Origin: Kiritimatiellia bacterium
GTDB lineage: Bacteria > Verrucomicrobiota > Kiritimatiellia > JAKQHR01
Reading direction: 5' to 3'
NCBI GenBank assembly: GCA_050178035.1
Contig: JBFXGK010000001.1
Coordinates: 128,679 to 192,678 of the forward strand
DNA length: 64,000 nucleotides
This document shows, one piece after another, positions 4,229 to 53,208 of this stretch; position 1 is the first letter of the stretch; every line of letters begins with the position of its first letter. A program made the translations under genes and the position numbers. The notes beneath the pieces were generated by a model. It saw nothing but the letters and a program-made list of their open reading frames with translations, searched no databases and was not told where the DNA came from.

Positions 4229-5022
4229 TACCCGTGTGATTCGGTCGGGAACCGGCCCTGCTCGACTTCGTCCTTGTAGCTGGTCAGGGCGCGGGTGATT
4301 TCGGTGCCGAGTTCGGCGTAGCGTTTCACGAAGCGCGGCTGATTCCCATGATAGAGGCCAAGCAAATCGTGCCAGACCAGCACCTGACCATCACACCCGG
4401 GGCCTGCACCGATTCCAATGGTTGGAATATTTATCGAGGCGGTAATTTCTGCCGCCAGTTTCTGCGGAATGCATTCAAGCACCAGCGAAAAAGCTCCGGC
4501 CTCGGCCAGGTCTTTCGCGTCCTGTTTGAGCTGCTCCGCATCTTGTTCTGTTTTGGCCTGAACCCTGAACCCTCCAAAAACATTTACGCTCTGCGGGGTC
4601 AAACCAAGATGGGCCTGCACCGGGATCCCGTTGGCCACCATTCGTTGAACCAGTTCAACGCGCACGGCCCCGCCCTCGACCTTGACGGCATCAGCCCCGG
4701 CTTCTTTTAAAAACCGCCCGGCATTGATCAATGCTTCGTCTTCGGAGCCCTGATAGGAAAGAAAAGGCATGTCCGCCACCACCATGGCCTGTTTCACGGC
4801 TCGCGAAACCGCGCGGGTGTGGTGAAGCATTTCTTCCATGGTGACGGGAAGCGTTGTGTCGTATCCAAGAACAGTCATGCCCAGCGAGTCTCCCACAAGC
4901 ACCAGCGGGATGCCCGCCTCGTCCGCGATCCGGGCGGATGAAAAATCATAGGCCGTGATGCAGGCAATTTTCCGCTGACCCTTCTGGGCCTTGATCGTGA
5001 GCACTGTCCACTGTTTTTTCAT
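4225..5022 (-). CDS. panB: 3-methyl-2-oxobutanoate hydroxymethyltransferase
   Basis: ORF 4225..5073; [24 protein letters not shown] motifs. Start set to ATG at 5022 (MKKQWTVL), just after folK stop. Confidence 0.9.
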
Positions 5023-7752: not shown

Positions 7753-7829
7753 TTCCAATGATTGGAAGTTTCTTTCTGAAAAGTTCCAACCATTGGAAAA
7801 TCTAAACACGATTCCTCCAATGATTGGAA
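7753..7829. promoter_or_regulatory. array of three 7-1-7 palindromes TTCCAAT-N-ATTGGAA, 31-bp centre spacing, 30-106 bp upstream of dapA start
   Basis: Read directly: TTCCAATGATTGGAA 7753-7767, TTCCAACCATTGGAA 7784-7798, cTCCAATGATTGGAA 7815-7829. Confidence 0.5.
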
Positions 7830-7919
7830 GTTTTTACGCATTATTTTCCAGCGGCTGGAACTTAAAGTCAGCCTCCGGCCGACACCCGGAACGCTGGTGT
7901 CCTTCCGCAGAAAATCCGC

Positions 7920-7974
7920 GAAAATGCAAAATTTCGCAAAAAATTGGCATTTTTGACCGTTTTTTGCCATTTTT
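7920..7974. repeat. phased A/T-tract array, left part (interrupted by IS insertion)
   Basis: gaaaatgcaaaatttcgcaaaaaattggcatttttgaccgttttttgccattttt; T/A runs recur every ~10-11 bp. Confidence 0.5.
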
Positions 7975-9290
7975 GCACATCTGTCCCAGTATTACCGCCA
8001 CAGCATCAACTGGTTAGAAGAGGGAGGTGTTTCTGGGGAGGCGTCTGCCTGCTGAAAAGCCTGTAAAATGGGCACTTTTTCAAATAGCGAGACACTCAAG
8101 ACCTGTAGAATAATGTAGAGTGAAGCTTCTATTTTCAGCCGCTTCTTTATGATGGCGACCAGCAGATATACTGTGATCGCAATCCAGATTTGAGATTTAA
8201 CCGCATTGGGCGAGGTTCCGTAGAATGACTTGATCCGCAGATTCTGCTTGATCCATTTAAAAAATATTTCGATGTTCCAGCGGCCCTTGAAAAGTTCTGC
8301 AACCGTGAGGGGAGGAAGTGAAAAATTATTGGTAAGGAAAACCAGCGTCCGGTTTTCCTGATCACGATACTTGATGCGCCGGAGATGTTCCGGAAAGTAT
8401 CGGGCTGTCTGTGTACCCGTGAGAATGATGGTCTGATCGCAAAGGATGCCGCAGTCTCTATCGGATGGATGGGAGTAGATACGTTGGAACTGAAGATTGG
8501 ATCGGGCCCGTGTAACAAAATAGGCTTTAAGCGAGTGTAGCAGATAAAGGCGTTTGAAATCCAAATAGGCGCGGTCCATTACATAGTAGGCTCCGGGAAC
8601 CGGCAGGATGTGATCCAATACACTGGCATCACCTCGTTTGCCATCTGTAATCAGTATATATTCCGGGATATTGCCGGATAAGTTGAGAAGGGTATGCATC
8701 TTCACGGCCCCTTTGGTCCGGCAGAAATGAGCCCAAGGAAACATCGAAAGACACAGGTCGATCACCGTTGAGTCCAATGCGTATACATCGGCACCCAAAT
8801 CCGGCATCAGCGGATCATCCGCGTATAATCGTCTGGCCTCAGGAATCAGGACGTGAGCAAAATCAGCGTAGATGCGCCAGTCCCGGGTTTCGTTCGCAAC
8901 AGAAAGATTGTTGCGCGAGACGCGACTGTGAATCCCCAAGTGGTACAGCTTGCCGCTCACAGCCCGCAAACAGGATTCGATGTCCCGCAAACTTTCACGG
9001 CAAGTCAACTGAGCAAAGGCCATCACACGGAACTGCTCAGAGCACCGGAACGTCTTCACCTTGTAATCGCCCTGATAGCGATTCACCAACGTCTGAAATC
9101 GCCACCAGGGCAACTGCTGCATCAGCTGAGAAAATACGGTTGTTCCAGAATACATAAGGTTGATCTCCTCCTCCTGATCAACCTTATAGGAAAAACCAAT
9201 TTCAAGTCGGAAAGGATGTAATATCAACACATCCTTATGATGTAACGTGCGTTATAACTATTTTATGCGAAAACGTTGGGACAGATGTGC
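7975..9290 (-). mobile_element. IS element, IS4-family-like, ~1.3 kb, with terminal inverted repeats and flanking direct repeat
   Basis: Perfect 14-bp inverted repeats gcacatctgtccca (7975-7988) and tgggacagatgtgc (9277-9290); flanking direct repeat cattttt at 7968-7974 and 9291-9297 (7-9 bp depending on exact IR end); one DDE transposase ORF inside. Confidence 0.8.
7992..9155 (-). CDS. DDE transposase (IS4 family-like)
   Basis: ORF 7992..9230; start set to ATG at 9155 (MYSGTTVFSQLMQQLP...). Candidate DDE residues in YALDSTVIDL, YVMDRAYLDF, WNIEIFFKWIKQNLRIK. Confidence 0.85.
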   Translation of the reverse strand: MYSGTTVFSQLMQQLPWWRFQTLVNRYQGDYKVKTFRCSEQFRVMAFAQLTCRESLRDIESCLRAVSGKLYHLGIHSRVSRNNLSVANETRDWRIYADFAHVLIPEARRLYADDPLMPDLGADVYALDSTVIDLCLSMFPWAHFCRTKGAVKMHTLLNLSGNIPEYILITDGKRGDASVLDHILPVPGAYYVMDRAYLDFKRLYLLHSLKAYFVTRARSNLQFQRIYSHPSDRDCGILCDQTIILTGTQTARYFPEHLRRIKYRDQENRTLVFLTNNFSLPPLTVAELFKGRWNIEIFFKWIKQNLRIKSFYGTSPNAVKSQIWIAITVYLLVAIIKKRLKIEASLYIILQVLSVSLFEKVPILQAFQQADASPETPPSSNQLMLWR

Positions 9291-9350
9291 CATTTTTGGG
9301 CTTTTTGGGGGCATTTTTGACCATTTTTTGCACTTTTTCGTGGTTTTCAG
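9291..9350. repeat. phased T-tract array, right part (continuation across the IS)
   Basis: catttttgggctttttgggggcatttttgaccattttttgcactttttcgtggttttcag. Confidence 0.5.
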
Positions 9351-9371
9351 GTTGATGTTTTAAGGGCTTAG

Positions 9372-10739
<1,368 letters not shown>

Positions 10740-11339: not shown

Positions 11340-12395
11340 TCAGGGGGCCGGGCCTGCAACATTTACGGACGAACAGCATTTCTTCTTCGCGGGTTTGCGG
11401 CCGGACCAGAGGGCGCAGCCCAGCACAGCGGCCAGCGCAGCCGTTGACACCAGCTTCATCCAGTACGGCATCATGGCGTGCGCCATGTGGTCCACATGCA
11501 CATGATCCGGGATGATCACGTTGTCCAGCAGCAGCCCGAAGGCCAGCGCCGAAACGGCGATGGTCGCCAGATAGATCAGAACGGACTTGTTGCCCATCAT
11601 GCTGCGGATGATGGCAATGGTGGCCGCATTGGTGGCGGGGCCGGTCATCAGGAACACAAACGCGGCACCCGGCGTGATGCCCTTCATCATGAACGCCGCC
11701 GCCACGGGCACGGAAGCTGTCGCGCAGACATAGACAGGAATGCCCATCAGCATCATCACCACCATGGACAGGAAGCCGGTGCCCAGATATTCCGCAAAGA
11801 AATCCTCGGGGATCAGCGCGGTGATCAGGGCCGCTACCGCGAGGCCGATCACCATGTCGCGCGCAATGTGCTTCGGGAGGGTGATAAAGCCGTGGCGAAG
11901 CCCGTCCAGAAACCGGTTTCTTTTGTGGTCATGCTTCGCGCAGCAGGGATCTTCGCAGGGCTCAGGCACCTGATCGGGTCCCTTCCCGGATGAAAAATCC
12001 ACCAGCCATCCGCCCAGGATTCCCGTCAGCAGGGCGGCAATGGGACGCACAATCGCAAACACCATTCCCAGCAGGCTGTAGGTTACAAAAATACTGTCCA
12101 CCCCGGTCTGCGGTGTGGAAATGAGGAAAGCGGTGGTGGCACCCCTGCTGGCGCCGTGCTTGCGGAGGGAGGCGGAGACGGGGATCACGCTGCAGCTGCA
12201 CAGCGGAAGCGGCACACCAAAAGCGGAGGCCTTGATCACCGGCCATATGCCGCGGCCGCCCAGATGGCGTTCCACCGTAGAGGCGGAGAGGAACATGGAA
12301 AGAATGCCGGCCACAAAGAATCCAAACAGGAGGTATGGGGACATCTGCACGAGCACGTCCCAGAACGAATTCAAGACAGCCCAAATAGTTTCCAC
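11340..12395 (-). CDS. permease, ArsP/DUF318-like (putative metal or metalloid transporter)
   Basis: 351 aa, polytopic; Cys motif PLPLCSCSVIP reminiscent of ArsP-type permeases. Confidence 0.65.
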   Translation of the reverse strand: METIWAVLNSFWDVLVQMSPYLLFGFFVAGILSMFLSASTVERHLGGRGIWPVIKASAFGVPLPLCSCSVIPVSASLRKHGASRGATTAFLISTPQTGVDSIFVTYSLLGMVFAIVRPIAALLTGILGGWLVDFSSGKGPDQVPEPCEDPCCAKHDHKRNRFLDGLRHGFITLPKHIARDMVIGLAVAALITALIPEDFFAEYLGTGFLSMVVMMLMGIPVYVCATASVPVAAAFMMKGITPGAAFVFLMTGPATNAATIAIIRSMMGNKSVLIYLATIAVSALAFGLLLDNVIIPDHVHVDHMAHAMMPYWMKLVSTAALAAVLGCALWSGRKPAKKKCCSSVNVAGPAP

Positions 12396-12445
12396 TTCAC
12401 TATCTCCTTCCAGTAAAAATACTGCACCGATGGCTTTAGATCAAC

Positions 12446-12925
12446 TCAGAGCACCTCTTTCAGGGCGGATTCGTAGACCGAACGGTGATTGAAACCGCTG
12501 ATCTGGCGGAGCTGGCGGCCGTTCTCATAAATGCGGACATCGGGAATGCCCACTATCCCGGCAGCCTGCGCTTCGGCTGCATGTTTGTCCACATTCACCC
12601 CGACAAAGAGCACGCGGCCGGCATAATCCCCCGCGAGCTTGTCCAGCACCGGCTTGAGGCTCTTGCAGGGTGGACACCAGTCGGCATAGTAATCAACAAG
12701 AACCGCGCGGTTGCTTTGGACAATCCCCGCGATGGTTTCGCCGGGGGCAGGCAGATAAATGTTTTGCGGGGTGCGGGTGCCGATTTCATGCCACGCAATC
12801 AAACCCGCGATCACAGCGCCGATGAAGGCGCCGTTCACGGGGGCCAGATGCAGTCTTTTCACCTTCAGGCACGCAATGAACCCAATCAGTGCCCCAAAGG
12901 CCGCCGTTAAAATCAGGATCAGCAT
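12446..12925 (-). CDS. membrane-anchored thioredoxin-family protein
   Basis: 159 aa; N-terminal TM helices, WCPPC active site. Confidence 0.8.
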   Translation of the reverse strand: MLILILTAAFGALIGFIACLKVKRLHLAPVNGAFIGAVIAGLIAWHEIGTRTPQNIYLPAPGETIAGIVQSNRAVLVDYYADWCPPCKSLKPVLDKLAGDYAGRVLFVGVNVDKHAAEAQAAGIVGIPDVRIYENGRQLRQISGFNHRSVYESALKEVL

Positions 12926-12928
12926 GGA

Positions 12929-13447
12929 TCAGTCCGCTGCGGGAGCGGCCGGCGGGACGAAGACGCGCGCGGCCAGCTCGCGGTCGAGCATGAACAGGCC
13001 CTGCTTGGAATCGCCGGAAATCCGGATCTGGTCAAGGATGCCTGTAGCGTTTTCTTCTTCCTCGATCTGCTCGGTGACAAACCACTGCACAAAGATTTCA
13101 GAGGCATAATCGCCGTCTTCGCGCGAAAGCTTCATCAGGTTGTTGATGCGGGAGGTGACATATTTCTCATGCTCCAGCGTCAGTTCAAAAAGCTCCTTCA
13201 TGGAGGTTCCCTTTAATTCAGGCTTTTCGATCGCTTCCATGACCGGCAGCGCGCCCTGGCTGCAGAGATATTTGAAGAACTTGTCGGCATGAGTCATTTC
13301 TTCCAGAACCTGGACATGGAACCAGTTTGCGCAGCCTTTATAACCCTGGGTTTCCGCCTGGGCGGACATGGCATAATACAAGTAGGCCGAATAGATTTCC
13401 TTGTTGATCTGCTCGTTGATGGCTTTTGCCAGTTTCTTCGATATCAT
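12929..13447 (-). CDS. ferritin (non-haem)
   Basis: 172 aa; ferritin-like four-helix ferroxidase signature (EIYSAYLYYAMS, LEEMTHADKF). Confidence 0.85.
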   Translation of the reverse strand: MISKKLAKAINEQINKEIYSAYLYYAMSAQAETQGYKGCANWFHVQVLEEMTHADKFFKYLCSQGALPVMEAIEKPELKGTSMKELFELTLEHEKYVTSRINNLMKLSREDGDYASEIFVQWFVTEQIEEEENATGILDQIRISGDSKQGLFMLDRELAARVFVPPAAPAAD

Positions 13448-13473
13448 CTGATCTGCTCCTTATCTAAGATGAA

Positions 13474-13497
13474 GCGGGGGCCGTCATCGGCCCCCGC
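13474..13497 (-). terminator. GC-rich hairpin between dfx and ferritin gene (possible terminator/attenuator)
   Basis: gcgggggccg-tcat-cggcccccgc perfect 10-bp stem; no strong U-tract, so weak as an intrinsic terminator. Confidence 0.35.
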
Positions 13498-13518
13498 GTT
13501 CAATTGCTTGATTATGGT

Positions 13519-13896
13519 TCAGGACTTCCAGAGGCCGTGCACGTTGCAATACTCGCGTGCCGATACATTCTTAGCGCTGATGCCTTCAAAAACGGCAACA
13601 GGCTGGTCGCCCGGCTTCAGGAATTTCCGTCCCACTTTGTCATCAAACTGAATTTCGATCCATTCAATATAGTGTTCCGGGAGCATGGGATGAAGCGTGC
13701 TTCCCACGGTGACCTTGTAGCCCGTGGCGGTTTTCTCGATCAAGGGAACATGCTTCTCCTTGGTCTTGTCCGCCGTCTGTTCCACCATGAGCTTCATGGG
13801 TTCGCCGCAGCAAACCAGTTCCCCGTCGCCGGCATGCAGGACGCTGACAATATTACTGCAGGCCGCACATTTATAGATTTCCAGTCGCTTTGTCAT
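13519..13896 (-). CDS. dfx: desulfoferrodoxin (2Fe superoxide reductase)
   Basis: 125 aa; N-terminal desulforedoxin Cys cluster ([10 protein letters not shown]...CCGEPM) plus SOR domain. Confidence 0.9.
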
Positions 13897-13912
13897 TGTT
13901 CGCTCCTTGTTG

Positions 13913-14485
13913 TTACCAGTTTTCCGCCAACAGTTCGAAATGGGCCTGGGGATGGGCGCAGGCCGCGCAGATATCCGGGGCTTCTTTTCCGGTATGAATA
14001 TATCCGCAGTTCATGCAGCGCCAGACAACCGGTTTGTCTTTTTTGAAAACAGTCTGGGCGTCCACGTTGGCCTTGAGCCCGAGGAAGCGCTTCTCGTGCT
14101 GCTTCTCGGCGACGGCAATGGCTTCAAACACCTTCGCAATTTCGGGGAAACCCTCTTTGCGGGCGGTGTCGGCGTACGAGGGATACATCTCGGTCCACTC
14201 GTAGTGCTCGCCGGCTGCGCCGTGCTCAAGGTTCTCGGAGGTCGAGGCGATTGTTCCGGCCGGGAAGGACGCGGTGATCTCCACCTCGCCGCCCTTGAGA
14301 AACTTGTAAAGACGCTTTGCGTGCTCGCTTTCCTGATCAGCCGTCTCCTCGAAAACCTCGGAGATCTGGCGGAATCCCTCTTTTTTTGCCTTGCCCGCAT
14401 AAAAGGTATAACGGTTCCTTGCCTGCGATTCACCTGCGAATGCGGTCAGCAGATTTTTCTCCGTCTGGCTTCCTTTCAGTTCCAT
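13913..14485 (-). CDS. rbr: rubrerythrin
   Basis: 190 aa; diiron domain ([23 protein letters not shown]) plus C-terminal rubredoxin-like CxxC...CxxC. Confidence 0.95.
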
Positions 14486-14494
14486 TTTTCTCTC

Positions 14495-15643
14495 CTATGA
14501 CAATTTCTGTCCAAGCTGTTTTTCGTATTTTCTGAAATCCGCTGCGGACCCGGCCATTTGGATACCGACGAGTACGCCATCCTTCACCAGAAGGCCGCGG
14601 AAAATTTCAGCACTGTGCTCCAATATTACCGTATGAATCCCATTTGCGCAAGCCGGACCGATTGAATTTACGGCGAAGCCCGCGTGAGAGTAGAATATGG
14701 GCGAATCTGAAGGCTGGTGAGCCGACAGGGCCATTCCCTGCGCCGCCGAAAGCGCGTTGACTGCGGCCACCTTGCCCTGCAGCACGGCCTCCAGCGCGCA
14801 AAAGATATCTACATGGTCCCATTCAGCAATATCTCCGCAGGCAAAGACCGAAGGTGCGGATGCCTGCATCTTCATATCCACCCGTATCCCCTTCCCGCAA
14901 ACGAGCCCCGAGGATTTCGGAAGCGTCACATCGCGGCGCGCGCCCACCGCCAGCACCACCAGGTCCGCTGTCATCACGTCGCCGGACTCCATTATGAGTT
15001 GGAAATCCCCGGCATTCTGCCTGGCAATGGACGACACCGTGGTCCCCAGAAGGATTTTAACGCCCATCGACCGGAGTAAATTCTCGACGACTTCAGACGC
15101 ATCCGTGCACAAGTTGGACAGCATCAAATGCTCCAGGCGCTCCACCAGCACCACGTCCAGACCGGCAAGTGCTCCGCGATGCGCCACTTCCACCCCCAGA
15201 ATTCCGCCCCCGATCACCACCAACTTCCTGCCGGGAGCCAGCGTCCCGCGGATGTCTTCGGCATGCTCTATGTGCCATAGCGGATGAATATGTTTCCGCG
15301 CGGAATGCGCGAACGGCGGTATGGCTGGACCGGATCCGATGGAAAATATAATAGCATCATACGACTCTGTTCCCCGTCCGGATGTCAGGGTTCGCGCAGC
15401 TGAATCACAGGCCGTGACCGGAGTGTCCAGCCGCAAATCGATTTTGCGCGACGCATACCACGCCAAGTCATGCATCGTGATGTCCTCCAGCGAGGACTGC
15501 GCAAAAGCGTACCCGACCAGCTTGGGGCGGTAATACGGCAAGACCTTTTCCGCCGAATACAAATGGACTTCCGCTCCCTGCGCGGCGGCCGTTTCGGCCG
15601 CCTTCACGCCCGCATGGCCCGCGCCAATGATTCCCAGCTTCAC
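14495..15643 (-). CDS. NAD(P)H:rubredoxin oxidoreductase-like FAD-dependent pyridine nucleotide-disulfide oxidoreductase
   Basis: ORF 14495..15709; two Rossmann motifs (LGIIGAGHAG, LVVIGGGILGVE). Start set to GTG at 15643 (VKLGIIGAG), overlapping the PtsI-like stop (GTGA). Confidence 0.75.
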   Translation of the reverse strand: MKLGIIGAGHAGVKAAETAAAQGAEVHLYSAEKVLPYYRPKLVGYAFAQSSLEDITMHDLAWYASRKIDLRLDTPVTACDSAARTLTSGRGTESYDAIIFSIGSGPAIPPFAHSARKHIHPLWHIEHAEDIRGTLAPGRKLVVIGGGILGVEVAHRGALAGLDVVLVERLEHLMLSNLCTDASEVVENLLRSMGVKILLGTTVSSIARQNAGDFQLIMESGDVMTADLVVLAVGARRDVTLPKSSGLVCGKGIRVDMKMQASAPSVFACGDIAEWDHVDIFCALEAVLQGKVAAVNALSAAQGMALSAHQPSDSPIFYSHAGFAVNSIGPACANGIHTVILEHSAEIFRGLLVKDGVLVGIQMAGSAADFRKYEKQLGQKLS

Positions 15644-17253
15644 GAAACCGCCGCCTTTCGGACCGCGGGTATTGCGCGCGGGCTGCAGCTCACGGATTTT
15701 ATGCCGCATTCCATCAGTTTCCTGACCATCACCGGATCACTCGCCAGTTCGCCGCATACGGACAGCGACCGCCGGTGTTTTTCGGCGGCCGCTGCGATTC
15801 CGCGCAGCACCTGCCAGAACACCGGATGGTCAGAGGTGTATTCGTCAGTCACCAGCTCATTGCCGCGGTCCACCGCAAAAAGATATTGAGTAAGATCATT
15901 CGTGCCGATACTGGCAAATTGAGCCTCGGCCAGAATGGCATCCGCCTGAAGGGCGGCCGACGGGACTTCAAACATCACCCCGAATTCAATGCTGCCGGTT
16001 TTAATGTCCTCCACCATTTCTTTGAACATGTCGCGCAAGCGCCGGAATTGCGCAACATCAACGATCATGGGGAACATCACACGAACAGGGCCCTTCAGCG
16101 ATGCGCGTGCAATGGCACGCGCCTGATCACGAAACAGGTTCGGATGGCGGATCAGCAAACGGCTGCCGCGCAGGCCCAATGCGGGGTTTTCCTCCTTCGG
16201 AATCCTCATTGCCGGCAACGGCTTGTCTCCTCCGGCATCGAGCATCCGGAATGTGGTCACACGGCCTTCCATGGCCTCGACCACAGGCGCATAACGCGTA
16301 TACTGCGCTTCTTCAGACAGCAATTCGCCTGCGGATATGAATTCGAATTCCGTCCGGTAAAGTCCAATGCCCTCTGCCTTCATTTCGCGGGCTTCGGACA
16401 CTTCCCGGCCCAGTGTGATGTTGGCCATCACCTGAAGTTGCGGGACGGTGTCAACGGCTCCGTCACGGCGCGCCCTTCCCGCCTCGCAAGAGCAGGCGGC
16501 AATTGTTCTTTCATCCGGAGAAATGATCACTTCACCGGTGTCTCCATTCACAATCAGCTCTGTGCCGCAAGCAACGGTGCTGTGAATGTTCTTGATGCCG
16601 CTGACCGCGGGAATGCCCAGCGCGCGCGCAAGGATCGCAGCATGCGAGTTGACACCGCCATGTTCGGTGACAAATGCCAGAACCTCCCCGGTGTTCAAAC
16701 TGACGGTAAGGCTGGGCGTCAGCTCTTCGGCAATGACAATGCGGTTTTTGCCCCGGCGGCAGCGGCCGGCGCAACTGAACCCCGGTGCGGTATTGGACAG
16801 GTTGTCCAGCAGGCGGCGGCGAATCTCACCGATGTCAGACGCCCGCTCGCGAATGTACTCGTTGTCGAGAGCGCCCAGTTTCGTCTCATAGGCATCGAGC
16901 ACCGTATGAATCGCATTTTCAGCGTTGCGCAGGGCGGAACGGATGTGTTCGCGCAGCTGCTTAAGGATCATTGGATCCTCGACAATCATTTTCTGCGCAA
17001 CAAAAATGCCGGCCTCGGCCTGGCCCATCCGGTTTTCCACATGCGCGCGGATATTTTCAAGCTGCTGGGCTGTGGCTTCCACGGCATCTTCCATACGCTT
17101 GACTTCATCGTTGAGCTGTGCGGGTTCAATGGCGTAGTCGGGAACCTCCTGATGACGGTGATCATCAAAAAGGCAAACGCGGCCAAGGGCCACTCCTTTG
17201 CTCAGAGAAAGGCCTTGAACGCGTTTTTCAGCAGTTTTGTTTCCAGTGGCCAA
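15640..17253 (-). CDS. ptsI: phosphoenolpyruvate--protein phosphotransferase (PTS Enzyme I-like)
   Basis: 537 aa; EI motifs: catalytic His region GGVNSHAAILARALGIPAV, IGTNDLTQYLFAVDR, CGELASDP; N-terminal domain aligns with EI. Confidence 0.85.
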   Translation of the reverse strand: MATGNKTAEKRVQGLSLSKGVALGRVCLFDDHRHQEVPDYAIEPAQLNDEVKRMEDAVEATAQQLENIRAHVENRMGQAEAGIFVAQKMIVEDPMILKQLREHIRSALRNAENAIHTVLDAYETKLGALDNEYIRERASDIGEIRRRLLDNLSNTAPGFSCAGRCRRGKNRIVIAEELTPSLTVSLNTGEVLAFVTEHGGVNSHAAILARALGIPAVSGIKNIHSTVACGTELIVNGDTGEVIISPDERTIAACSCEAGRARRDGAVDTVPQLQVMANITLGREVSEAREMKAEGIGLYRTEFEFISAGELLSEEAQYTRYAPVVEAMEGRVTTFRMLDAGGDKPLPAMRIPKEENPALGLRGSRLLIRHPNLFRDQARAIARASLKGPVRVMFPMIVDVAQFRRLRDMFKEMVEDIKTGSIEFGVMFEVPSAALQADAILAEAQFASIGTNDLTQYLFAVDRGNELVTDEYTSDHPVFWQVLRGIAAAAEKHRRSLSVCGELASDPVMVRKLMECGIKSVSCSPRAIPAVRKAAVS

Positions 17254-17264
17254 AACGGCCTCAT

Positions 17265-17426
17265 CTATGCGACAGGCTCAAAGTCGCTTTTGGGAACACC
17301 GCATTCAGGACAAACCCAGCTGTCGGGAATGTCGGCAAAAGCGGTTCCGGGAGCAATCCCGTTGTCCGGATCTCCGACGGCGGGGTCATAAACGTATCCG
17401 CAGACGGTGCAAACATATTTCTGCAT
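17265..17426 (-). CDS. rubredoxin
   Basis: Not in ORF track (53 aa). Own translation: [53 protein letters not shown]; canonical CxxCG...WxCPxCG rubredoxin. Confidence 0.85.
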
Positions 17427-17431
17427 GTTGT

Positions 17432-20250: not shown

Positions 20251-21900
20251 TCACTTCCCGGCCATCATGGCCGCGACATCGGCCTGCACTTCGCCAGTCG
20301 GTTTGATGTCGAAGTTCTCAACCAGCACTTTGGCGACAGCGGGCGAAAGGAACGCCGGAAGCGTCGGCCCCAGGCGGATGCCTTTCACCCCCAGATGCAG
20401 CAGCGCCAGCAGCACCGCAACGGCCTTCTGCTCGTACCAGGCGATGTCGAACGAAAGCGGAAGGTCATTGATGGAGGCCAGACCGAACGCCTCCTTCAGC
20501 TTCAGGGCGATGACCGCCAGCGAGTAGCTGTCGTTGCACTGCCCAGCATCCAGCACGCGCGGAATGCCGCCGATGTCGCCGAGGTTCAGCTTGTTGTAAC
20601 GGTACTTCGCGCAGCCCGCGGTCAGGATGATCGTGTCCTTTGGCAGAGCCTCGGCTACTTCTGTGAAGTAGCTGCGGTTTTTGTGACGACCATCGCATCC
20701 GGCCATCACCACAAAGCGCTTGATCGCACCGGACTTGACAGCCTCCACCACCTTGCCGGCCACGGCCATGACCTGATTGTGTGCGAAACCACCGACGATT
20801 TCGCCGTTTTCAATCTCCTGCGGCGGCGGACACTTCTTCGCCTGCTCGATGATCGCGGAGAAATCCTTCTGCTTGCCCGGTTTGCGGTCGGGGATGTGCT
20901 TTGCGCCCGGCCAGCCGGCCATGCCCGTGGTGTAAAAACGGTTGAGATAAGAATCCTTCACCGGAATGATGCAGTTGGTCGTCAGCAGGATCGGCCCGTT
21001 GAACGAGGCGAATTCCTTGTCCTGAAGCCACCAGCTCCCGCCGTAGTTGCCGGCCAGGTGCTTGTATTTCTTGAAGGCCGGATAGTAATGGCACGGAAGC
21101 ATTTCTCCGTGGGTATAGACATCCACCCCCGTGCCCTCTGTCTGCTGCAGCAGTTCGTCCATGTCCTTCAGGTCGTGGCCCGAAATCAGAATGCCCGGAT
21201 TTTTGCGGACGCCGGTGGCAACTTTTGTGATTTCCGGATTGCCATAGGTCTCGGTATTGGCTTTGTCGAGCAGCGCCATGGTCGTTACGGCAATTTCGCC
21301 CGCCTTCAGGACCATGCCCACCATTTGATCAACACTGAGTTTCTGAGTGGTCGAGATCAGACCATCAACCACAAACCGGTAGATGGCGTCATCCTCATAG
21401 CCGAGAACAAGCGCGTGATCAGCGTAGGCCGCGATGCCCTTCAGGCCAATGATCAGAAGCTGCTGGAGCGACCGCACGTCCTCGTTCGGCTCGGACGGGA
21501 TGCCGACCAGAAGCGCCTTGACCTGCAGATCCTCGCCCTTCTTCGGAGCCCATGTCGCCGCGTCGGGCAGACTTTTCGCCCAGGCGGCGTCCTTCTTCTC
21601 GCACTGCTTGCGAATGGCGTCGCGCTGCGCAACAGCCTCATGGATCAGGCGGCTGATGACTGCATCGTCAAAGTTGGCATTGGTGATTGTGGAAAAAAGA
21701 CCGCGGATAATGGTCTGTCCGACTGCGCGGTCATACAGGCCCAGTTCATCGGCTTTCTTGCCGGCAATGGCCAGTCCTTTCAGAGAATGGATCAGAAGAT
21801 CCATCAGATTTGCCGTGGGCTCCTGTTTTCCGCAAACGCCCCGGACGGTGCATCCCTGATTCTTCGCGGTCTCCTGACACTGGAAGCAGAACATACTCAT
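20251..21900 (-). CDS. hcp: hybrid cluster protein / hydroxylamine reductase
   Basis: 549 aa; N-terminal [11 protein letters not shown]...CTVRGVCGK Cys cluster and full-length Hcp architecture. Confidence 0.95.
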
Positions 21901-22370
21901 GATTTTCCCTTTCCTTTTTTTGGTTGTTTATAAATTTCAGCCAGCGTTGTTTTCTCAAAGAAAGCGTTCAGGCGGTTTTGAAGAATGCAGACGGACCCCT
22001 TCATCGGGCATTTCCCGCTGTAGGGACAGGGCTGCCCCTTGCGGTTGCAGACATTCATATAGACCGGCCCCTGCACGGCCTCGACAATCCGTGCGAGGCT
22101 GATCTTCCGGGTCGGAAGGGCCAGCAGATATCCCCCGCGCTTTCCGCGCACGGTTTTCACGACTCCGGCTTTTGCGAGCGTCTGCATGATCTTGCGGAGG
22201 GCGGGCAGCGGCACTTTGCAGTCCTTCGCCAGTTCAAGCGTGTCGGTGCGGGTGCACCGCCGGTCCAGCACATGCAGTGCCCGGAGCGCGTAATCGGTCT
22301 CTCTTCTGAGTATTTCCATAAGCCATCCTTTAAATGCGACCAATTTAGTCCTATTTAACTCCCGCGTCAA
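21897..22370 (-). CDS. Rrf2-family transcriptional regulator (NsrR/IscR-like)
   Basis: 157 aa; [10 protein letters not shown]...GGYLLALP wHTH signature; C-terminal Cys residues; 4-nt overlap with hcp start. Confidence 0.85.
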
Positions 22371-22854: not shown

Positions 22855-22931
22855 TTCCAATCATTGGAAGTATTTCCGGGAAAAGTTCCAACCATTGGAA
22901 GTTTTGTGAAGAAAAGTTCCAATGATTGGAA
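22855..22931. promoter_or_regulatory. array of three 7-1-7 palindromes TTCCAAT-N-ATTGGAA, 31-bp centre spacing, upstream of the Cys-rich/rrf2/hcp operon
   Basis: TTCCAATCATTGGAA 22855-22869, TTCCAACCATTGGAA 22886-22900, TTCCAATGATTGGAA 22917-22931. Confidence 0.55.
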
Positions 22932-24107: not shown

Positions 24108-24224
24108 CCTCCCTCTTCGGCCTTTGCAGGCTTTTGTTGGAAGAAATGCTATCAAATATTCCGCAGGAAACAATCGAAGAAACGAACCGGTTTGCGCGCT
24201 TCTCGATCTTTTGCGGCGAATTAT

Positions 24225-24315
24225 GAAAAAATTGACGAAATTCGGCCAATTTTGAGCATTTTTAGCCGTTTTTGGCGTGTTTTCGCTAATTTTGGCCATT
24301 TCGATGCTTTTTCAG
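24225..24315. repeat. phased A/T-tract array
   Basis: gaaaaaattgacgaaattcggccaattttgagcatttttagccgtttttggcgtgttttcgctaattttggccatttcgatgctttttcag; T runs every ~10 bp. Confidence 0.5.
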
Positions 24316-29603: not shown

Positions 29604-29788
29604 ATAATCTCCTGATCCTCTTCGGGCGTTTTATACCACAAAAACGGCTTGTCCGAAGCAAAAACATAGCTCAAAATATCATTATATCTTGATATGTCAA
29701 TATATAGATTGCGTTTTCTGCGGAAAATCCTTTTGTTTGAATCCCGCACGCCCATCGGGTAACCTGTATCCGCTTTTAGAGTACGGAG

Positions 29789-36690: not shown

Positions 36691-37634
36691 GCTGCGACCA
36701 TCTTTTGTTTGCGGGCGTACAGCAGGACGGCCGCCGTGAAAAAGAGAATCACCTCGAGGATGGCCATGCCGCTCTTGGCCACGGACATGCTCGGCCCGAA
36801 CATCATCACCAGCACATTGTCGTCGCGGTCCAGCAGATAGCCGCCGATGCGCATCAGCCAGACCCAGCCGGCGTGAAGGCCGATTGCCAGATACAGATTG
36901 CCGTAGGCGGCATACAGATAGCAGAGCGTCATGCTCATGAAGAAAACGGTGATGAACATGAAACCGAACTCCCAGCGCATGTCCAGGTCGGTGATTAAAT
37001 ATGGGAACATCTGAAAGCCCGAATACCAGTGGCCGCGGACAACGCCGACCGCCGGCTCCGGCGTCGCGAAATGCGCGAACGCGAAAACAAAGCTCAGCAG
37101 CAGGGCGGCGGGCAGAAGTTTCATGCTCTTGCGCAGCATCCCCAGCGCCGCGCCGCGGAAAAGAATCTCCTCGATAATCCCGACCACCACCGCGCCGATC
37201 ATGTAGCTGATGACCTTCCCCACAAGCGGCCAGCCGATGCGGCCGGGAAGATAAAACATCGCGCCCGACGCCCAGCCCGTCAGCAGGAGGACAATCATTG
37301 AAACCGTTCCAATGCTCCAGCCCGACCAGAAAAGTTTCACGCCGCGATGATCCCGGGAAAGGCCGAGCGCCTTCCAGTTGTTGAGGCCGGTGATGCGGAT
37401 GGCCGGATAAAGCGCCAGCAAAACGCAAACCAGCACGCAGCGGTTCATCACCTTCTCGAATTCGGTCTTGCGCAGGCTTTCAAGCCACGCGAACTCGCGG
37501 CCGAGCCAGGTGACCAGATTGAAAACCGGAGGCGCGAGCAGCGTGCCCGCGACCAGCGCCAAAGCGAAAAACAGCAGCGCGGCCACACCCGGCCGGCATG
37601 CCGTCCATTTCCGTTCTGTAGGCGACAACGTCAT
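36687..37634 (-). CDS. CPBP family intramembrane metalloprotease (CAAX protease-like)
   Basis: ORF 36687..37865; start set to ATG at 37634 (MTLSPTERK); EEILFRG motif and polytopic membrane profile. The Lys-rich N-terminal extension in the track is translation of the T-tract array. Confidence 0.75.
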   Translation of the reverse strand: MTLSPTERKWTACRPGVAALLFFALALVAGTLLAPPVFNLVTWLGREFAWLESLRKTEFEKVMNRCVLVCVLLALYPAIRITGLNNWKALGLSRDHRGVKLFWSGWSIGTVSMIVLLLTGWASGAMFYLPGRIGWPLVGKVISYMIGAVVVGIIEEILFRGAALGMLRKSMKLLPAALLLSFVFAFAHFATPEPAVGVVRGHWYSGFQMFPYLITDLDMRWEFGFMFITVFFMSMTLCYLYAAYGNLYLAIGLHAGWVWLMRIGGYLLDRDDNVLVMMFGPSMSVAKSGMAILEVILFFTAAVLLYARKQKMVAA

Positions 37635-37707
37635 TTGAAGCAGAGAATGACTGTAAACATGGCGTTTCGCAATCCATTTTGCGGCATCCCTTGAAAAGCA
37701 TAAAAAT

Positions 37708-37800
37708 GCGGTTTTAACCTGTTTTTGGCCATTTTTGAGCATTATTAGCCGTTTTTTGGCCTTTTTGAGCACTTTTTGGGCATTTTTAAGAGAATTTTCA
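37708..37800. repeat. phased T-tract array (best example)
   Basis: gcggttttaacctgtttttggccatttttgagcattattagccgttttttggcctttttgagcactttttgggcatttttaagagaattttca; T runs start at about 37712, 37722, 37732, 37752, 37762, 37773, 37784, 37795. Confidence 0.55.
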
Positions 37801-37928
37801 CCATTATGAAGATTTATCGCGCAGACTTGTCCGCCTATGGTGGAGGCGCAGTGACGCAGAGGCAACAGATATTCTGAATGCTTCCTTCGGCCTAAAGGAC
37901 TACAGCCTAAAAGACTTCTTCCCCGGAA

Positions 37929-38666
37929 TCAGGCTTTGAGTTTGCGGTTAAGGGCGTACATGGCGATGCTGCCGGCCACGGAGGCGTTGAGGGAGTTGAT
38001 CTGGCCGTGCTGTTCGATGCGGACCACATAATCCGCCATGTTCAGGATGTACTGGCCGACGGACTTGTCTTCGCCGCCGATCACCAGCATCACGCGGTCA
38101 TTCGCGGAAACATTCACCTCTTCCAGCGCGGTCTTTCCGGCCCCGTCGAGCGCAATGATGGTGAAGCCCGCCTCATGAGCCTTGCGCGCGTAGAGGTTGG
38201 CCGCGGAATCCTTGCAGATTTTCAGAAACTCGGTTGCGCCCGCCGAGACCTTGACCACCGAGGGATAGATGTCCGGCACGCCCTTCATCGGCGCCAGAAT
38301 GCTGCTGAAGCCGAAAATTTCCGCCGTGCGGAGGATCGCGCCGACGTTATGCGGGTCTTCGACATTATCGAGCAGAAGCACGCGCTGCGCGCTGATCACT
38401 TCCTCAAAGGAAACGTACGGATAGGTGCTGGAGCGGATGACAGCCCCCTGGTTGTCCTTGCTTCCGGACAGGTCCATCACGCGCCCCTTCTCCACCCACT
38501 CCACCGGAATCTCCTTGCGGACGAGATATTCCTCCAGCTTCTTGATGCGGGGATTGTTTGCGGATGAAAGACTGAGAAACGCCTGCTTGATGTTTCGACG
38601 CCCGGCGCGCACCACCTCGAATATCGGGTTGATTCCGTAAATATACTCGACGGAGCGCTGGCTCAT
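37929..38666 (-). CDS. rlmB: 23S rRNA 2'-O-ribose methyltransferase, SpoU/TrmH family (RlmB-like)
   Basis: ORF 37929..38822; start set to ATG at 38666 (MSQRSVEYIYG) just after efp stop; SPOUT motifs (LLLDNVEDPHNVGAILRTAE, VIGGEDKSV, SLNASVAGSI). Confidence 0.8.
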   Translation of the reverse strand: MSQRSVEYIYGINPIFEVVRAGRRNIKQAFLSLSSANNPRIKKLEEYLVRKEIPVEWVEKGRVMDLSGSKDNQGAVIRSSTYPYVSFEEVISAQRVLLLDNVEDPHNVGAILRTAEIFGFSSILAPMKGVPDIYPSVVKVSAGATEFLKICKDSAANLYARKAHEAGFTIIALDGAGKTALEEVNVSANDRVMLVIGGEDKSVGQYILNMADYVVRIEQHGQINSLNASVAGSIAMYALNRKLKA

Positions 38667-44747: not shown

Positions 44748-44793
44748 TTCCAATCATTGGAAGTATTATAACGAATAGTTCCAGGGATTGGAA
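44748..44793. promoter_or_regulatory. two 7-1-7 palindromes, 31-bp centre spacing, 63-108 bp upstream of iorA
   Basis: TTCCAATCATTGGAA 44748-44762; TTCCAGGGATTGGAA 44779-44793 (degenerate left half). Confidence 0.5.
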
Positions 44794-44855: not shown

Positions 44856-46631
44856 TTGCGGCAGGATATGAAACCGACAAAAACACTGATGCTGGGAAAT
44901 GAAGCGATTGCGCGCGGCGCCTGGGAAGCCGGCGTGCGCGTGGCCACGGCCTATCCCGGCACTCCCAGCACCGAAGTCACCGAACACATCGCGCAGTACA
45001 AGGAAATAGATTCCGAGTGGTCGGTGAATGAAAAAGTCGCACTGGAAGTAGCGATTGGCGCTTCCGTGGCCGGCGCGCGCGCAGTCTGCACGATGAAGCA
45101 CGTTGGCCTCAATGTGGCCATGGATCCCCTGCTCTCGATTTCTTATCCCGGCGTCAATGCGGGGCTGGTGGTCGTGGTGGCGGACGACCCCGGACAGCAC
45201 AGTTCCCAGAACGAGCAGGACACCCGCTATTTCGGCATGGCCGGAAAGCTGCCGGTGCTCGAACCGTCCGACAGCCGCGAGTGCCGCGATTTCATGATCC
45301 GCGCGTTTGAAATCAGCGAGAAATTTGACACCCCTGTGATCGTTCGCACAACCACGCGCGTGGCCCACGCCTATGGTCTCGTGGATCATGGCGAGCGCGC
45401 TGACGTTCCGCTGCGCGAGTACGACAGCCGATTCGGGAAATACATGGTCGCGCCCGCATTCTCGCGCAAGCGCCGCGTGGTGGCCGAGGAGCGTCTTGGG
45501 AAACTGCGCGGGTTCGCGGAAACCACCGACTTGAATGTTTATGAGGAAGGCCGGTCTGATACCTGCATCGTCACCGGGAGCATTGCTTATCAGTACTGCA
45601 AGGAAGTCATGCCCGAGGCCGGTTTCTGCAAACTGGGGCTTTCGTATCCCCTGCCCGAAAAGAAGCTGAAAGATTTCTGCAGACGGTACCAGCAGGTTTT
45701 CGTTGTTGAGGAACTGGAACCCATTTTCGAAAACCACCTGAAGACGCTCGGAATCCCAGTGATTGGAAAAGATAAAGTTCCAATCATTGGAGAATTGAGC
45801 ACGGAGATCGTCCGAAAGGCGCTGACCGGGATTGCTCCGAAGCCGGCAGCATCCCAATTTGAAAACCTTCCTGTTCGTCCTCCGGTGCTCTGCCCCGGAT
45901 GCCATCACCGCGGACCGTTCTATGTGATGAAGAAACTCAAGCTGAAAGTGGCCGGCGACATCGGATGCTACACGCTGACCGCCTCGCCGCCGCTGAGCAT
46001 CATGGACACCGCGATCTGCATGGGCGCGGGCATCGGCATGGCCTTCGGCATGCAGAAGGCGCGCGGAAAGGATTTCGCGGGAAAATCTATCGCGGTCATC
46101 GGCGACTCGACCTTCTGGCATTCCGGCATGACCGGCCTCCTGGACATTGTCTATAACCGCGGCATCACCACGGTTGTCATTTTGGACAACAGCATCACCG
46201 CGATGACCGGGCATCAGGAGAATCCATCCAGCGGCAGGACTCTCAGCGGAGAAACCGTGCCTGCGATCAGCTTTGCGGATTTTGCAAAATCCATCGGCAT
46301 CAGGCATGTGCGCGAAGTGGATGCCTTCAACCTGAAGGAACTCGAAACAGTCATGCGCGAGGAACTGGCGCGCGAGGAGCCGTCGGTGATCATCACCAAA
46401 CGCATCTGCATCCTGCACCCGTGTGCGGTCAGGCATTTCCCGCTGAAGGTGAATCCGGATCTCTGCAAGAGCTGCATGAAATGCCTTTCGATCGGATGCC
46501 CCGCCATTTCCTTCGACGGCGACAAGGTGAAGATTGATCAGGTGCTTTGCGTGGGATGCGAACTGTGCGCGGGCATATGCCCGTTCCATGCGATTGAAAA
46601 GCAGCCCAAACCCGACGGAGGCGAATCTTGA
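44856..46631 (+). CDS. iorA: indolepyruvate ferredoxin oxidoreductase subunit alpha
   Basis: 591 aa; TPP-binding and 4Fe-4S ferredoxin motifs (CKSCMKC...CPAISF, CVGCELCAGICP). Confidence 0.95.
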   Translation: MRQDMKPTKTLMLGNEAIARGAWEAGVRVATAYPGTPSTEVTEHIAQYKEIDSEWSVNEKVALEVAIGASVAGARAVCTMKHVGLNVAMDPLLSISYPGVNAGLVVVVADDPGQHSSQNEQDTRYFGMAGKLPVLEPSDSRECRDFMIRAFEISEKFDTPVIVRTTTRVAHAYGLVDHGERADVPLREYDSRFGKYMVAPAFSRKRRVVAEERLGKLRGFAETTDLNVYEEGRSDTCIVTGSIAYQYCKEVMPEAGFCKLGLSYPLPEKKLKDFCRRYQQVFVVEELEPIFENHLKTLGIPVIGKDKVPIIGELSTEIVRKALTGIAPKPAASQFENLPVRPPVLCPGCHHRGPFYVMKKLKLKVAGDIGCYTLTASPPLSIMDTAICMGAGIGMAFGMQKARGKDFAGKSIAVIGDSTFWHSGMTGLLDIVYNRGITTVVILDNSITAMTGHQENPSSGRTLSGETVPAISFADFAKSIGIRHVREVDAFNLKELETVMREELAREEPSVIITKRICILHPCAVRHFPLKVNPDLCKSCMKCLSIGCPAISFDGDKVKIDQVLCVGCELCAGICPFHAIEKQPKPDGGES

Positions 46632-51638: not shown

Positions 51639-51689
51639 ATCACTCCTCCAATGTTATGCAGCCGCTGAATGAAGATTTTAAAGAAATTT

Positions 51690-51785
51690 AGGTGTTTTTA
51701 AGCATTTTCGAGCATATTTTGGCCGTTTTTTGCCATTTTTAGGCATTTTTTAGCCCTTTTTGCTCATTTTTGAGCATTTTTTAAG
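51690..51785. repeat. phased T-tract array
   Basis: ggtgtttttaagcattttcgagcatattttggccgttttttgccatttttaggcattttttagccctttttgctcatttttgagcattttttaagccc; nine T runs at ~10-11 bp period. Confidence 0.55.
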
Positions 51786-51792
51786 CCCTGAA

Positions 51793-53208
51793 TTATTTTG
51801 CTTTCAAATGTTTGGCAAGGCCCTCGTAGGCCTTTTTGAACGGGTCCATCGGTGCGTTCAGCACGCCCGCGCCCACCTGCCCCACGCCGGGCTCCTTGTG
51901 AGCCACGCCGGTGTCAATGAACGGCAGAATGTTCTTTTCAACCACCTTCACAACATCAATGCCCGTCGGTGTACCGCGGAAGTTCAGGGATGGAATCTGA
52001 TACATGTTGTTTTCCGCCGCCGTGATTTCGTACATCGTCATCGTGTACTGCAGCGCATCCGCCGCGGTTCCGCCCACGAACTGCACAATGGCCGGCGAGG
52101 CTGCGATCGCGAAGCCGCCGAGCCCGCCCGTTTCCGTGATGGCGCTGTCGCCAATGTCGCGCGCAGCGTCGGCCTTGCTGAAGCCGGGGAAATACAGCGC
52201 ATCCGGAACCAGCGCTTCGCCGACATACCACTTCCCTCCGGTGGCGGAAATCTGCACGCCGAAGTCCGTGCCGTTGCGGGCCATGACCGTCGCGACGCTG
52301 CTGTTTTTGATCCCGCGCGCGGCATCCAGCACGCATTTGCTGGCGGGCATGGACAGGTTCAGGAAGAAATGGTCGTTGCTGTGGATGAACTCCAGGACGG
52401 CCGCCGCATCGGTGCGGTTCCCGGTGGTCTTGATGATGGCCGGGGCCAGCAGGCGATAGAGAAGCGAAGTTCCCGCGCGGTTGCGGTTGTGCACTTCGTC
52501 GCCCATGTGCAGGGCCTGCGCGATCAGGTTCTTGAGATCAATGAAGCCAAGCTGTTCAACCGCACGCTGCAGGACCGGATAGAGCACCTTTTCCATCCAG
52601 CGCAGGCGATCAATCACCTCCGGGCTGTAGGCTCCGTAGCGGAGCACCTTGCCGAGTCCCTCGTTCAGCGTGCAGTAGGCCTTGTTGCCAAAGGTCTTGT
52701 TTTCGATGATCCACACCGGCATCGAAGGCGTGACCACGCCCGCCATCGGGCCGACCGCGCAGTGCTCGTGGCAAGGCGCAAATTTCAATTTCCCTGACTT
52801 GGCTAACTTCTCCGCCTCTGCCGGGGTTTTCGCCATGCCCTCATAAAGCAGTCCGCCCATCATTGCGCCGCGCATCGGGCCGCACATGCGGTCCCAGGTG
52901 ATCGGCGGGCCGGAATGCAGGAACAGATTCTTTTTCATTCCGGGGATCACGTCAATCGCGCGCGCAAGGCCCACCACGCGCGGCATGCCGCGCAGGATGA
53001 TGTCCATCGCCTTCTTGTTGGCCTTTTCGATCTGGGCCTTTTTGCCAGCAATGATTCGAACCGCCTCCGGCGAAACATCCACCGGCGGCTTCCACTGCAC
53101 CTGAATGGCGGGCGTCCCGACTTCGTCCAGCGCGGCCTTGAAGGATTCGAGTCCAATATTGACCACTTTAACTTGACTGTTGAAAAGTTCTTTCACGGCC
53201 ATGATCAT
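51793..53208 (-). CDS. DUF1116 domain protein (YlbE-like)
   Basis: 471 aa; near-collinear to E. coli YlbE as I recall it (HSGPP, CHEHCAVGPM, NEGLGKVLRYGAY, FFLNLSMPASK, GIAHKEPGVGQVGAG). Confidence 0.85.
   Translation of the reverse strand: MIMAVKELFNSQVKVVNIGLESFKAALDEVGTPAIQVQWKPPVDVSPEAVRIIAGKKAQIEKANKKAMDIILRGMPRVVGLARAIDVIPGMKKNLFLHSGPPITWDRMCGPMRGAMMGGLLYEGMAKTPAEAEKLAKSGKLKFAPCHEHCAVGPMAGVVTPSMPVWIIENKTFGNKAYCTLNEGLGKVLRYGAYSPEVIDRLRWMEKVLYPVLQRAVEQLGFIDLKNLIAQALHMGDEVHNRNRAGTSLLYRLLAPAIIKTTGNRTDAAAVLEFIHSNDHFFLNLSMPASKCVLDAARGIKNSSVATVMARNGTDFGVQISATGGKWYVGEALVPDALYFPGFSKADAARDIGDSAITETGGLGGFAIAASPAIVQFVGGTAADALQYTMTMYEITAAENNMYQIPSLNFRGTPTGIDVVKVVEKNILPFIDTGVAHKEPGVGQVGAGVLNAPMDPFKKAYEGLAKHLKAK

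Follow-up and report, generated by a model that had tools for sequence, protein, structure and literature searches.

Helically phased T-tract arrays upstream of genes in an uncultured Kiritimatiellia bacterium as putative static-bend elements

The intergenic region between the stop codon of a SpoU-type methylase gene (37929) and the start of a CPBP protease gene (37634), both on the minus strand, contains an array (array 3; 37690–37800) in which eight T-tracts (37712–37798) recur in phase with the DNA helix next to the junction GAAAAGCATAAAAATGC (37694–37710). What this array is, and what it may do upstream of a gene, was addressed by analyzing the 64-kb stretch of DNA that contains it (hereafter, the window), which comes from an uncultured Kiritimatiellia bacterium and has 57% G+C. 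The window was scanned for runs of T or A (≥4 nt) chained at start-to-start distances of 8–13 bp, one skipped unit being allowed, and only four chains with five or more tracts emerged: 9293–9347 (6 tracts), 24250–24312 (6), 37712–37798 (8), and 51676–51799 (11). A three-tract piece (7950–7974) was also returned. All five pieces have T on the plus strand, and the sole A-chain in the window is a weak one of three tracts (29640–29676). Direct reading of the five coordinates showed runs of 4–6 T with G+C-rich spacers of 4–6 nt between them, and Fourier analysis gave a best period of 9.8–10.5 bp per array, clustering at 10.1–10.4 bp. None of 200 dinucleotide-preserving shuffles of the whole window produced a chain of five or more tracts (the maximum was four). 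When the A+T-rich intergenic regions bearing the arrays were shuffled, chains of at least five tracts arose at 0.13 per shuffle versus four observed, and an eight-tract chain was obtained in 3 of 1,000 shuffles, with none longer; the longest chain observed in the concatenated sequence had 10 tracts. A three-unit pattern matched four times versus an expectation of 0.00. Sequence, chain scan, and shuffles all confirm the phased runs of 4–6 T that the first-pass annotation had described at five loci, and the phasing at the helical repeat is real. The density is ~1 array per 16 kb in this 57% G+C genome.

The remaining arrays occupy similar positions. Array 2 (24220–24315) combines six T-tracts (24250–24312) with an A-tract junction (24226–24246) and lies upstream of a NosD-like β-helix gene that starts at ~24103 on the minus strand. 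Array 4 (51670–51790) has 9–11 T-tracts with a 31-bp super-period detected by TRF and is located 32–52 bp upstream of a gene for a 522-aa permease-like protein (start 51638, minus strand). Array 1 is in two pieces. The left piece (7903–7975) is the dapA-proximal end and bears a switch from A- to T-tracts, with four phased A-tracts on the plus strand (7910–7946) followed by three T-tracts (7950–7974), and the right piece, on the eno side (9290–9352), has six phased T-tracts. Between them, and outside the array proper, lies an IS4-like insertion sequence (7976–9289, minus strand, 1314 bp) encoding a transposase with DUF4372 and DDE_Tnp_1 domains (Pfam). Its terminal inverted repeats are CACATCTGTCCC and GGGACAGATGTG, and a 9-bp target-site duplication, CCATTTTTG, flanks it at 7967–7975 and 9290–9298. 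In contig L297, from a 99%-identical strain, the insertion sequence is absent and array 1 runs uninterrupted (...TTTTTTGCCATTTTTGGGC...); this allele, together with the duplication, establishes that the two pieces are one array split by an insertion sequence, as had been proposed. An exact look-up of the transposase for further copies returned no record. The weak array (29640–29676) has A on the plus strand and precedes a plus-strand gene at 29789; its units, CAAAAACGGC and GCTCAAAA, resemble those of the other arrays and mark it as a possible minor member of the family.

The arrays are related by sequence as well as by spacing. Their unit is T5–6 preceded by RRSC[A/G] (e.g., GGCCA, GAGCA, AGCCG), which bears out the unit sequences first reported, and T is nearly absent from the spacers. 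Three units compose a super-period of ~31 bp, [RRCCG-T6][GSCM-T5][GAGCA-T5], assigned by TRF at 51687–51783. The core AAAAA-TGSC-AAAAAA-CGG-YC is common to most arrays and CCGTTTTTTGSCMTTTTTNRGC to arrays 1, 3, and 4, and pairs of arrays have 18–26-mers in common: arrays 1 and 4 share CCGTTTTTTGCCATTTTT; arrays 2 and 3, which have a 26-mer in common with one mismatch, share TTTTGAGCATTWTTAGCCGTTTTT. AAAAATGCCAAAAAACGGCCC is present in two arrays from other contigs (L001 and L214a, see below). The unit consensus and the common words uphold the earlier view of a single sequence-related family. At the gene-proximal end of each array, A-tracts switch to T-tracts; along the sense strand of the gene next to that end, the layout is [A5–6 N4–5] × 5–11, [T4–6 N5] × 1–4, 30–190 bp, and ATG. 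The A-to-T junction is dyad-symmetric (e.g., AAAAATGCCAATTTTT) and can form an A-T-rich hairpin. This switch, the ~31-bp super-period, and the core motif were overlooked in the first-pass annotation, as were the narrow taxonomic range and the fast within-species divergence described below.

OmpR/PhoB-type regulators, and ParR on parC, bind direct repeats one helical turn apart, and the array units are likewise direct repeats on one helix face. The arrays could be imagined as a binding platform for a lineage-specific DNA-binding protein, either nucleoid-associated or a regulator of tandem direct repeats, with curvature as a by-product. The specific core in most arrays, the 18–26-mers common to array pairs, and the 31-bp super-period speak for such a platform, and the confinement to a single narrow lineage is what a lineage-specific protein would predict. 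Against this, the unit outside the T-run amounts only to RRSC[A/G], less than the well-conserved unit expected of tandem operators or iterons; the arrays diverge by 4% within the species, tract-breaking changes included; genes for partition, replication, or an obvious cognate regulator were not found beside them; and the neighboring genes compose no recognizable regulon. On balance, a protein platform appears unlikely.

Curvature was predicted with three dinucleotide wedge models (AA-wedge, Bolshoy–Trifonov, and De Santis), the check that the first-pass annotation had suggested. In all three models the top five peaks of the 64-kb window coincide with the five pieces, which reach 111–160° over ~62 bp where the next-best peaks reach 70–85° and the window mean is ~20°; these absolute angles are indicative only. 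The arrays in contigs L001, L214, L285, L297, and L238 each gave one peak of ~150°, with everything else at or below 85°, and the weak array ranked 6th to 10th depending on the model. As in phased A-tracts generally, the runs are at least 4 bp long and lack TpA steps; most are T5–T6, and there are 6–11 per array. The sequence C-A6-CGG reportedly resembles the synthetic, maximally bent DNA of the Crothers laboratory. We see about an even chance that the arrays are redundant static-bend elements upstream of candidate promoters, a reading weakened by the fact that the curvature values come from model parameters rather than from a gel.

The position of the arrays relative to genes is consistent with such a role. 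Intergenic regions of 90 bp or more add up to ~2.9 kb in our gene map (4.6% of the window), and all four arrays of the window lie in regions of this kind, each holding a gene start. The distance from array edge to start is 52–197 bp, in agreement with the 50–200 bp estimated initially. The Lys-rich N-terminal extensions into which the arrays are translated in the ORF list had been rejected at the outset, correctly so: they are artefacts of that list because the true starts, recognized by a signal peptide or TM segment and a Shine-Dalgarno sequence, lie downstream. A coding reading is ruled out by the 10–11 bp period with its shifting frames. The genes on the A-to-T side are dapA, the NosD-like gene, the CPBP protease gene, and the permease-like gene in the window, and galE (L285), a radical-SAM gene (L214a), and leuC (L001) in other contigs. 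The neighbors as a whole (dapA, eno, NosD-like, CPBP, SpoU-type methylase, permease-like gene, and AllG-like) share no common theme, and no tRNA, replication, partition, or obvious cognate regulator gene was found adjoining any array. Array 1 and the L214a array are in divergent intergenic regions where no gene ends. The proposal that the arrays read as A-tracts upstream of the promoter, made for the minus-strand genes, is not a general rule, because array 1 also faces eno and does so in the opposite sense, with T-tracts on the sense strand of eno. No array occurs in the one convergent intergenic region of the window, a sample too small to exclude convergent regions. Elsewhere in the window, an oxygen-defence cluster typical of an anaerobe (11340–15709) encodes an ArsP-like permease, thioredoxin, ferritin, desulfoferrodoxin, and rubrerythrin; next comes a pyridine-nucleotide oxidoreductase gene, and contigs of the same species have a rubredoxin gene farther on, at a position equivalent to ~17300–17430 of the window.

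The uniform orientation of the arrays is confounded with both gene orientation and replication strand. If the T-tract strand were always the lagging (C-rich) strand, the arrays might be a replication-strand signal acting on replication or chromosome handling. The T strand was the C-rich strand in all four sequences examined: the window arrays all have T on the plus strand, which has negative GC skew, and the A strand is the G-rich strand in L001, L214, and L285. This agreement is fully confounded with gene orientation, given that 42 of the 59 genes in the window are on the minus strand, and the weak array at 29640 is oriented the other way and precedes a plus-strand gene. The skews at the short loci are tiny (0.004–0.019), and we know of no strand signal with such a form. 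A replication-strand signal is accordingly regarded as highly improbable.

Candidate promoters near the arrays were sought with the σ70 consensus, which may not be that of Kiritimatiellia, and the outcome is neither for nor against a promoter reading. The scan returned TTGGCC-18-CATAAT adjoining array 2, the last unit of which forms the −35 element, and a candidate 20 bp beyond the L214a array; no σ70 consensus site was found beside arrays 1, 3, and 4 or those of L285 and L001. By eye, the candidate TTGCAT-16-TATCTT (9377–9404) abuts the T-tracts of array 1 before eno. A search for a promoter motif shared between array and start codon yielded just A/T-tract words and, at some loci, the palindrome TTTTCTGCGGAA. 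A further palindrome, TTTYCTGCGGAA (TTTTC-TGCG-GAAAA), lies between array and gene start at arrays 1 and 2 and the weak array (7903–7914, 24159–24170, and 29714–29725, respectively); it has seven matches with at most one mismatch versus 0.98 expected and is possibly another operator or part of a core promoter. The window also contains a second family of repeats. Its unit is a 15-bp palindrome, TTCCAAT(S)ATTGGAA, with AAAAG/GTTTT on its flanks, and it has 19 strand-matches versus 0.03 expected. Sets of two to three copies exactly 31 bp apart (7753–7829, 22855–22931, and 44748–44793) lie upstream of dapA, an operon ending in a gene for an Rrf2-family regulator (21897–22370), and an indolepyruvate oxidoreductase operon; single copies are found at 4413 and 45778, and the palindrome also occurs at L214 5923–5961. 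It is probably a transcription-factor operator array, and the operators possibly serve the Rrf2 protein.

The dyad symmetry of the A-to-T junction allows an explanation at the RNA level, in which the A-tract and U-tract parts of a transcript would pair as an A-U-rich hairpin with U runs and either end the upstream transcript or form a leader. A terminator scan identified an A-U-rich hairpin plus T-run both at the junction in L285 (14–17 pairs) and at the dapA-facing end of array 1. In L001, TTTT comes directly after an 11-bp palindrome, and four of the seven independent arrays, plus that of L001, come after a co-directional gene. The same scan reported no terminator-type site on the gene-sense (minus) strand at arrays 2–4, and where stems were found they had only three G-C pairs. 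Pairing is possible for the last one or two units only, leaving 5–10 units over, and array 1 and the L214a array are in divergent regions with nothing to terminate. A structured RNA was rejected on two further grounds: nothing in the window matched Rfam at gathering score, and folding z-scores ranged from −0.5 to −2.5 with a different structure for each array and strand. We consider a terminator or RNA element very unlikely.

The taxonomic range of the arrays was explored by a metagenome search with CCGTTTTTTGSCMTTTTTNRGC. Just 4 of the 117 loci retrieved (L214, L238, L285, and L297, all contigs of one activated-sludge assembly) are of the window's species; most of the others are an unrelated ~390-bp dispersed repeat, an identical mobile or plasmid-like segment, or chance matches. 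L238 and L297 are 98–99% identical to the window and therefore the same species, and L214 and L285, which have no overlap with the window and a G+C content of 0.58, are taken as other parts of the same organism's genome. No arrays were found in ~8 kb of new sequence beyond the window ends. Among the relatives examined, the only other lineage found with an array is represented by L001, a MAG contig with 77.6% nucleotide identity to the window over 5.3 kb. Its array has nine tracts and a period of 10.4 bp and lies 45 bp after the stop of a SpoU-type methylase gene, as array 3 does at 130 bp; the gene downstream is leuC in L001 and CPBP in the window. The two arrays align in register, whereas the remaining noncoding DNA is unalignable. 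The alignment score of 64 falls within the 42–76 of non-orthologous pairs, so orthology and family resemblance are indistinguishable by this measure. In 79 more distant SpoU-type methylase loci from GTDB genomes, no array was found in any with G+C above ~0.5, and A+T-rich loci contained irregular, chance-like chains of five to six tracts. Loci of relatives of the beta-lactamase-like protein and enolase (63–88% identity, G+C 0.58–0.72) had neither arrays nor synteny. In all, only ~7 independent arrays are open to comparison.

Homologues of indolepyruvate oxidoreductase were discarded as a route to orthologous loci, since the sole close cluster is on a 3.9-kb contig. The alpha subunit of indolepyruvate ferredoxin oxidoreductase (44856–46631) has, beyond its own 92% cluster, closest homologues of only 65–68% identity that are named from Fibrobacter, Chitinispirillaceae, and Polyangiaceae; hence its gene was possibly acquired by transfer. 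Phased T-tracts were also encountered in other organisms. The ~390-bp dispersed repeat (e.g., L204 2314–2702) is from an unrelated organism with ~47% G+C (L204–L320, Ga03079xx contigs), where it occurs in several copies per contig at 75–90% identity and contains GCCGTTTTTTGCCGTTTTTTGGCCTTTTTAGGC, three to four phased T-tracts with the type of unit seen in the Kiritimatiellia arrays. Viral contigs with 41–43% G+C carry a six-unit phased T-tract array, CCGTTTTTTGGCATTTTTGAGCCTATTTTTGGATTATTTTGAGCCTATTTTTGGG (L201 895–980; L202/L319 2822–2890), with a divergent gene start on one side and two tandem promoter-like repeats, TGTGGCTATAATACAACA, on the other; its predicted curvature of 110° is the top peak of the contig. 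A loose three-unit pattern gave at least 120 matches on viral contigs, which were chance ones, and was set aside as having no specificity.

Comparison of strains showed that the arrays change faster than their surroundings. Within the species, they differ at 10 of 249 aligned positions (4.0%), compared with 1.19% in coding and 1.13% in other intergenic sequence, and one pair of changes breaks a tract. At arrays 1 and 4, the two loci compared, with alleles from the 98–99%-identical strain contigs L297 and L238, respectively, the number of units is equal and no presence/absence polymorphism was seen. A contingency or CRISPR-like repeat was excluded because strains differ just by substitutions and single-base changes in T-run length. 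The faster divergence implies weak constraint on exact sequence, and weak constraint combined with an array at the corresponding position in another species fits a function that is redundant and depends on a bulk property; it is also compatible with a mutation-prone satellite kept by chance or gene conversion, as array divergence above coding is also what a neutral satellite would show.

Such a satellite, neutral or selfish, would lack function and consist of 10- or 31-bp units that slippage or unequal exchange had expanded in tolerant intergenic DNA and that recombination had carried from array to array. Apart from the raised divergence, it draws support from the long words common to arrays, which suggest shared descent or gene conversion, and from the T-tract motif in the ~390-bp dispersed repeat of the unrelated organism. 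Synteny between the window (37634–37929) and L001 (5333–5610) ends exactly at the array, and one contig of the same-species assembly, L214b, stops within an array (L214 11271–11303); both are as a satellite would predict, and the arrays may be rearrangement or assembly breakpoints. The constant unit number between 98–99%-identical strains, however, is not what expansion of this kind predicts, nor is the finding of an array at the corresponding flank in a 78%-identical species whose other noncoding DNA is unalignable. Slippage of 10-bp units alone leaves unexplained a period held at 10.2–10.4 bp, and neither terminal inverted repeats nor homology in the flanks could be found. The lack of an array in the sole convergent intergenic region would also count against a satellite, with a sample too small to weigh. 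Overall, a satellite origin is judged quite unlikely. A MITE- or REP-like element was rejected, as there are no consistent flanking inverted repeats, no flank homology, and no conserved array edges.

Curvature upstream of promoters has been recognized since the 1980s, usually as a loose statistical feature whose role in bacteria is debated; examples include the plc promoter of Clostridium perfringens, with three phased A-tracts, and Bacillus phage promoters with curved DNA upstream. The arrays resemble phased promoter A-tracts in their 4–6 bp runs, ~10–11 bp spacing, location just upstream of gene starts, and predicted curvature. They differ in having 6–11 near-perfect units instead of three to four loose ones, semi-conserved G+C-rich spacers, a core common to several loci, a 31-bp super-period, and a proximal A-to-T switch, and in constituting a discrete dispersed family within one narrow Kiritimatiellia lineage. 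It is established that core promoters of bacteria and phages can have helically phased A-tracts upstream and that these tracts exert effects (PMC9825172, PMC4081817); Synechocystis promoters are one example (PMC9825172). In the account given in PMC4081817, upstream A-tracts act through the α subunit of RNA polymerase (Aiyar et al. 1998), and the effects reported there (citing Ross 1993, Estrem 1998, and Aiyar 1998) and in PMC9825172 include curvature, α-CTD contacts, and plectoneme positioning. Like an UP element, the arrays show, directly before a presumed core promoter, an A-run and then a T-run on the non-template strand; unlike the UP element, a site of ~20 bp for α-CTD at −40 to −60 that is set by a mapped −35, they are 60–130 bp long. 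Diffuse 10–11 bp A-tract periodicity or clusters have been described genome-wide in prokaryotes (PMC4132750, PMC3940949, PMC3431218, PMC4060949). The arrays have in common with this periodicity AA/TT near the helical repeat and a tie to curvature, supercoiling, or packaging, but the periodicity runs diffusely through coding and noncoding DNA, whereas the arrays are discrete, countable, and strictly intergenic and have recognizable units. As a short family of direct-repeat units in many intergenic regions they recall REP/BIME elements, MITEs, and iterons, and one copy holds an insertion sequence, as some REPs do; unlike REP/BIME elements and MITEs, they are without terminal inverted repeats, palindromic stem-loops, target duplications, or homology beyond the tracts, and unlike iterons they have no adjacent replication or partition genes. 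No description of such arrays in this phylum was found in the literature, which is weak evidence of absence. Judged by these comparisons, the arrays appear to be a lineage-specific case of a known promoter-upstream feature with a putative function.

A family with this anatomy, predicted curvature, upstream position, second-species member, and narrow taxonomic range could operate as static bends in the following way. With 6–11 A/T runs of 4–6 bp spaced by G+C-rich sequence and repeating every ~10.2–10.3 bp, the small bend at each tract would add to the others in one plane, and 60–130 bp of intergenic DNA would become strongly curved. We infer that the array acts in cis on transcription initiation and that it has protein partners. 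The bend might wrap upstream DNA around RNA polymerase, its narrow minor grooves might be offered to the α C-terminal domain or a nucleoid protein, or it might fix the tip of a plectoneme at the promoter. Function would then rest on a bulk property (phase and A+T content), with redundant units whose exact sequence is unimportant. The T-tracts presented to eno, the replication-strand confounding, the small number of arrays, and the absence of a gene theme all count against static bends. A bolder and doubtful extension is that the array is a "portable bend," a lineage-specific, sequence-defined module with its 31-bp super-unit and core AAAAATGSCAAAAAACGG. Such a module would be spread and homogenized among promoter regions by recombination and read by a Kiritimatiellia protein or RNA polymerase to organize promoter-upstream DNA or supercoil domains, and it would double as a hotspot for IS insertion and rearrangement.

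Even as neutral satellites, the arrays would still break assemblies and create false Lys-rich ORF extensions. The signal itself is discrete, near-ideal, and countable, with 6–11 units at a 10.3-bp period, and comes from one uncultured lineage of the PVC superphylum in which, to our knowledge, the architecture of promoters has hardly been studied. Should the arrays modulate transcription or pin supercoils, they could usefully guide the annotation of promoters and true start codons in these MAGs. They would also offer a clean natural system for tests of static bends in vivo, with one design before unrelated genes and natural variants of it, one of them disrupted by an insertion sequence. If the portable module is real, it would be a new class of dispersed structural cis-element, as opposed to independently evolved runs of A-tracts.
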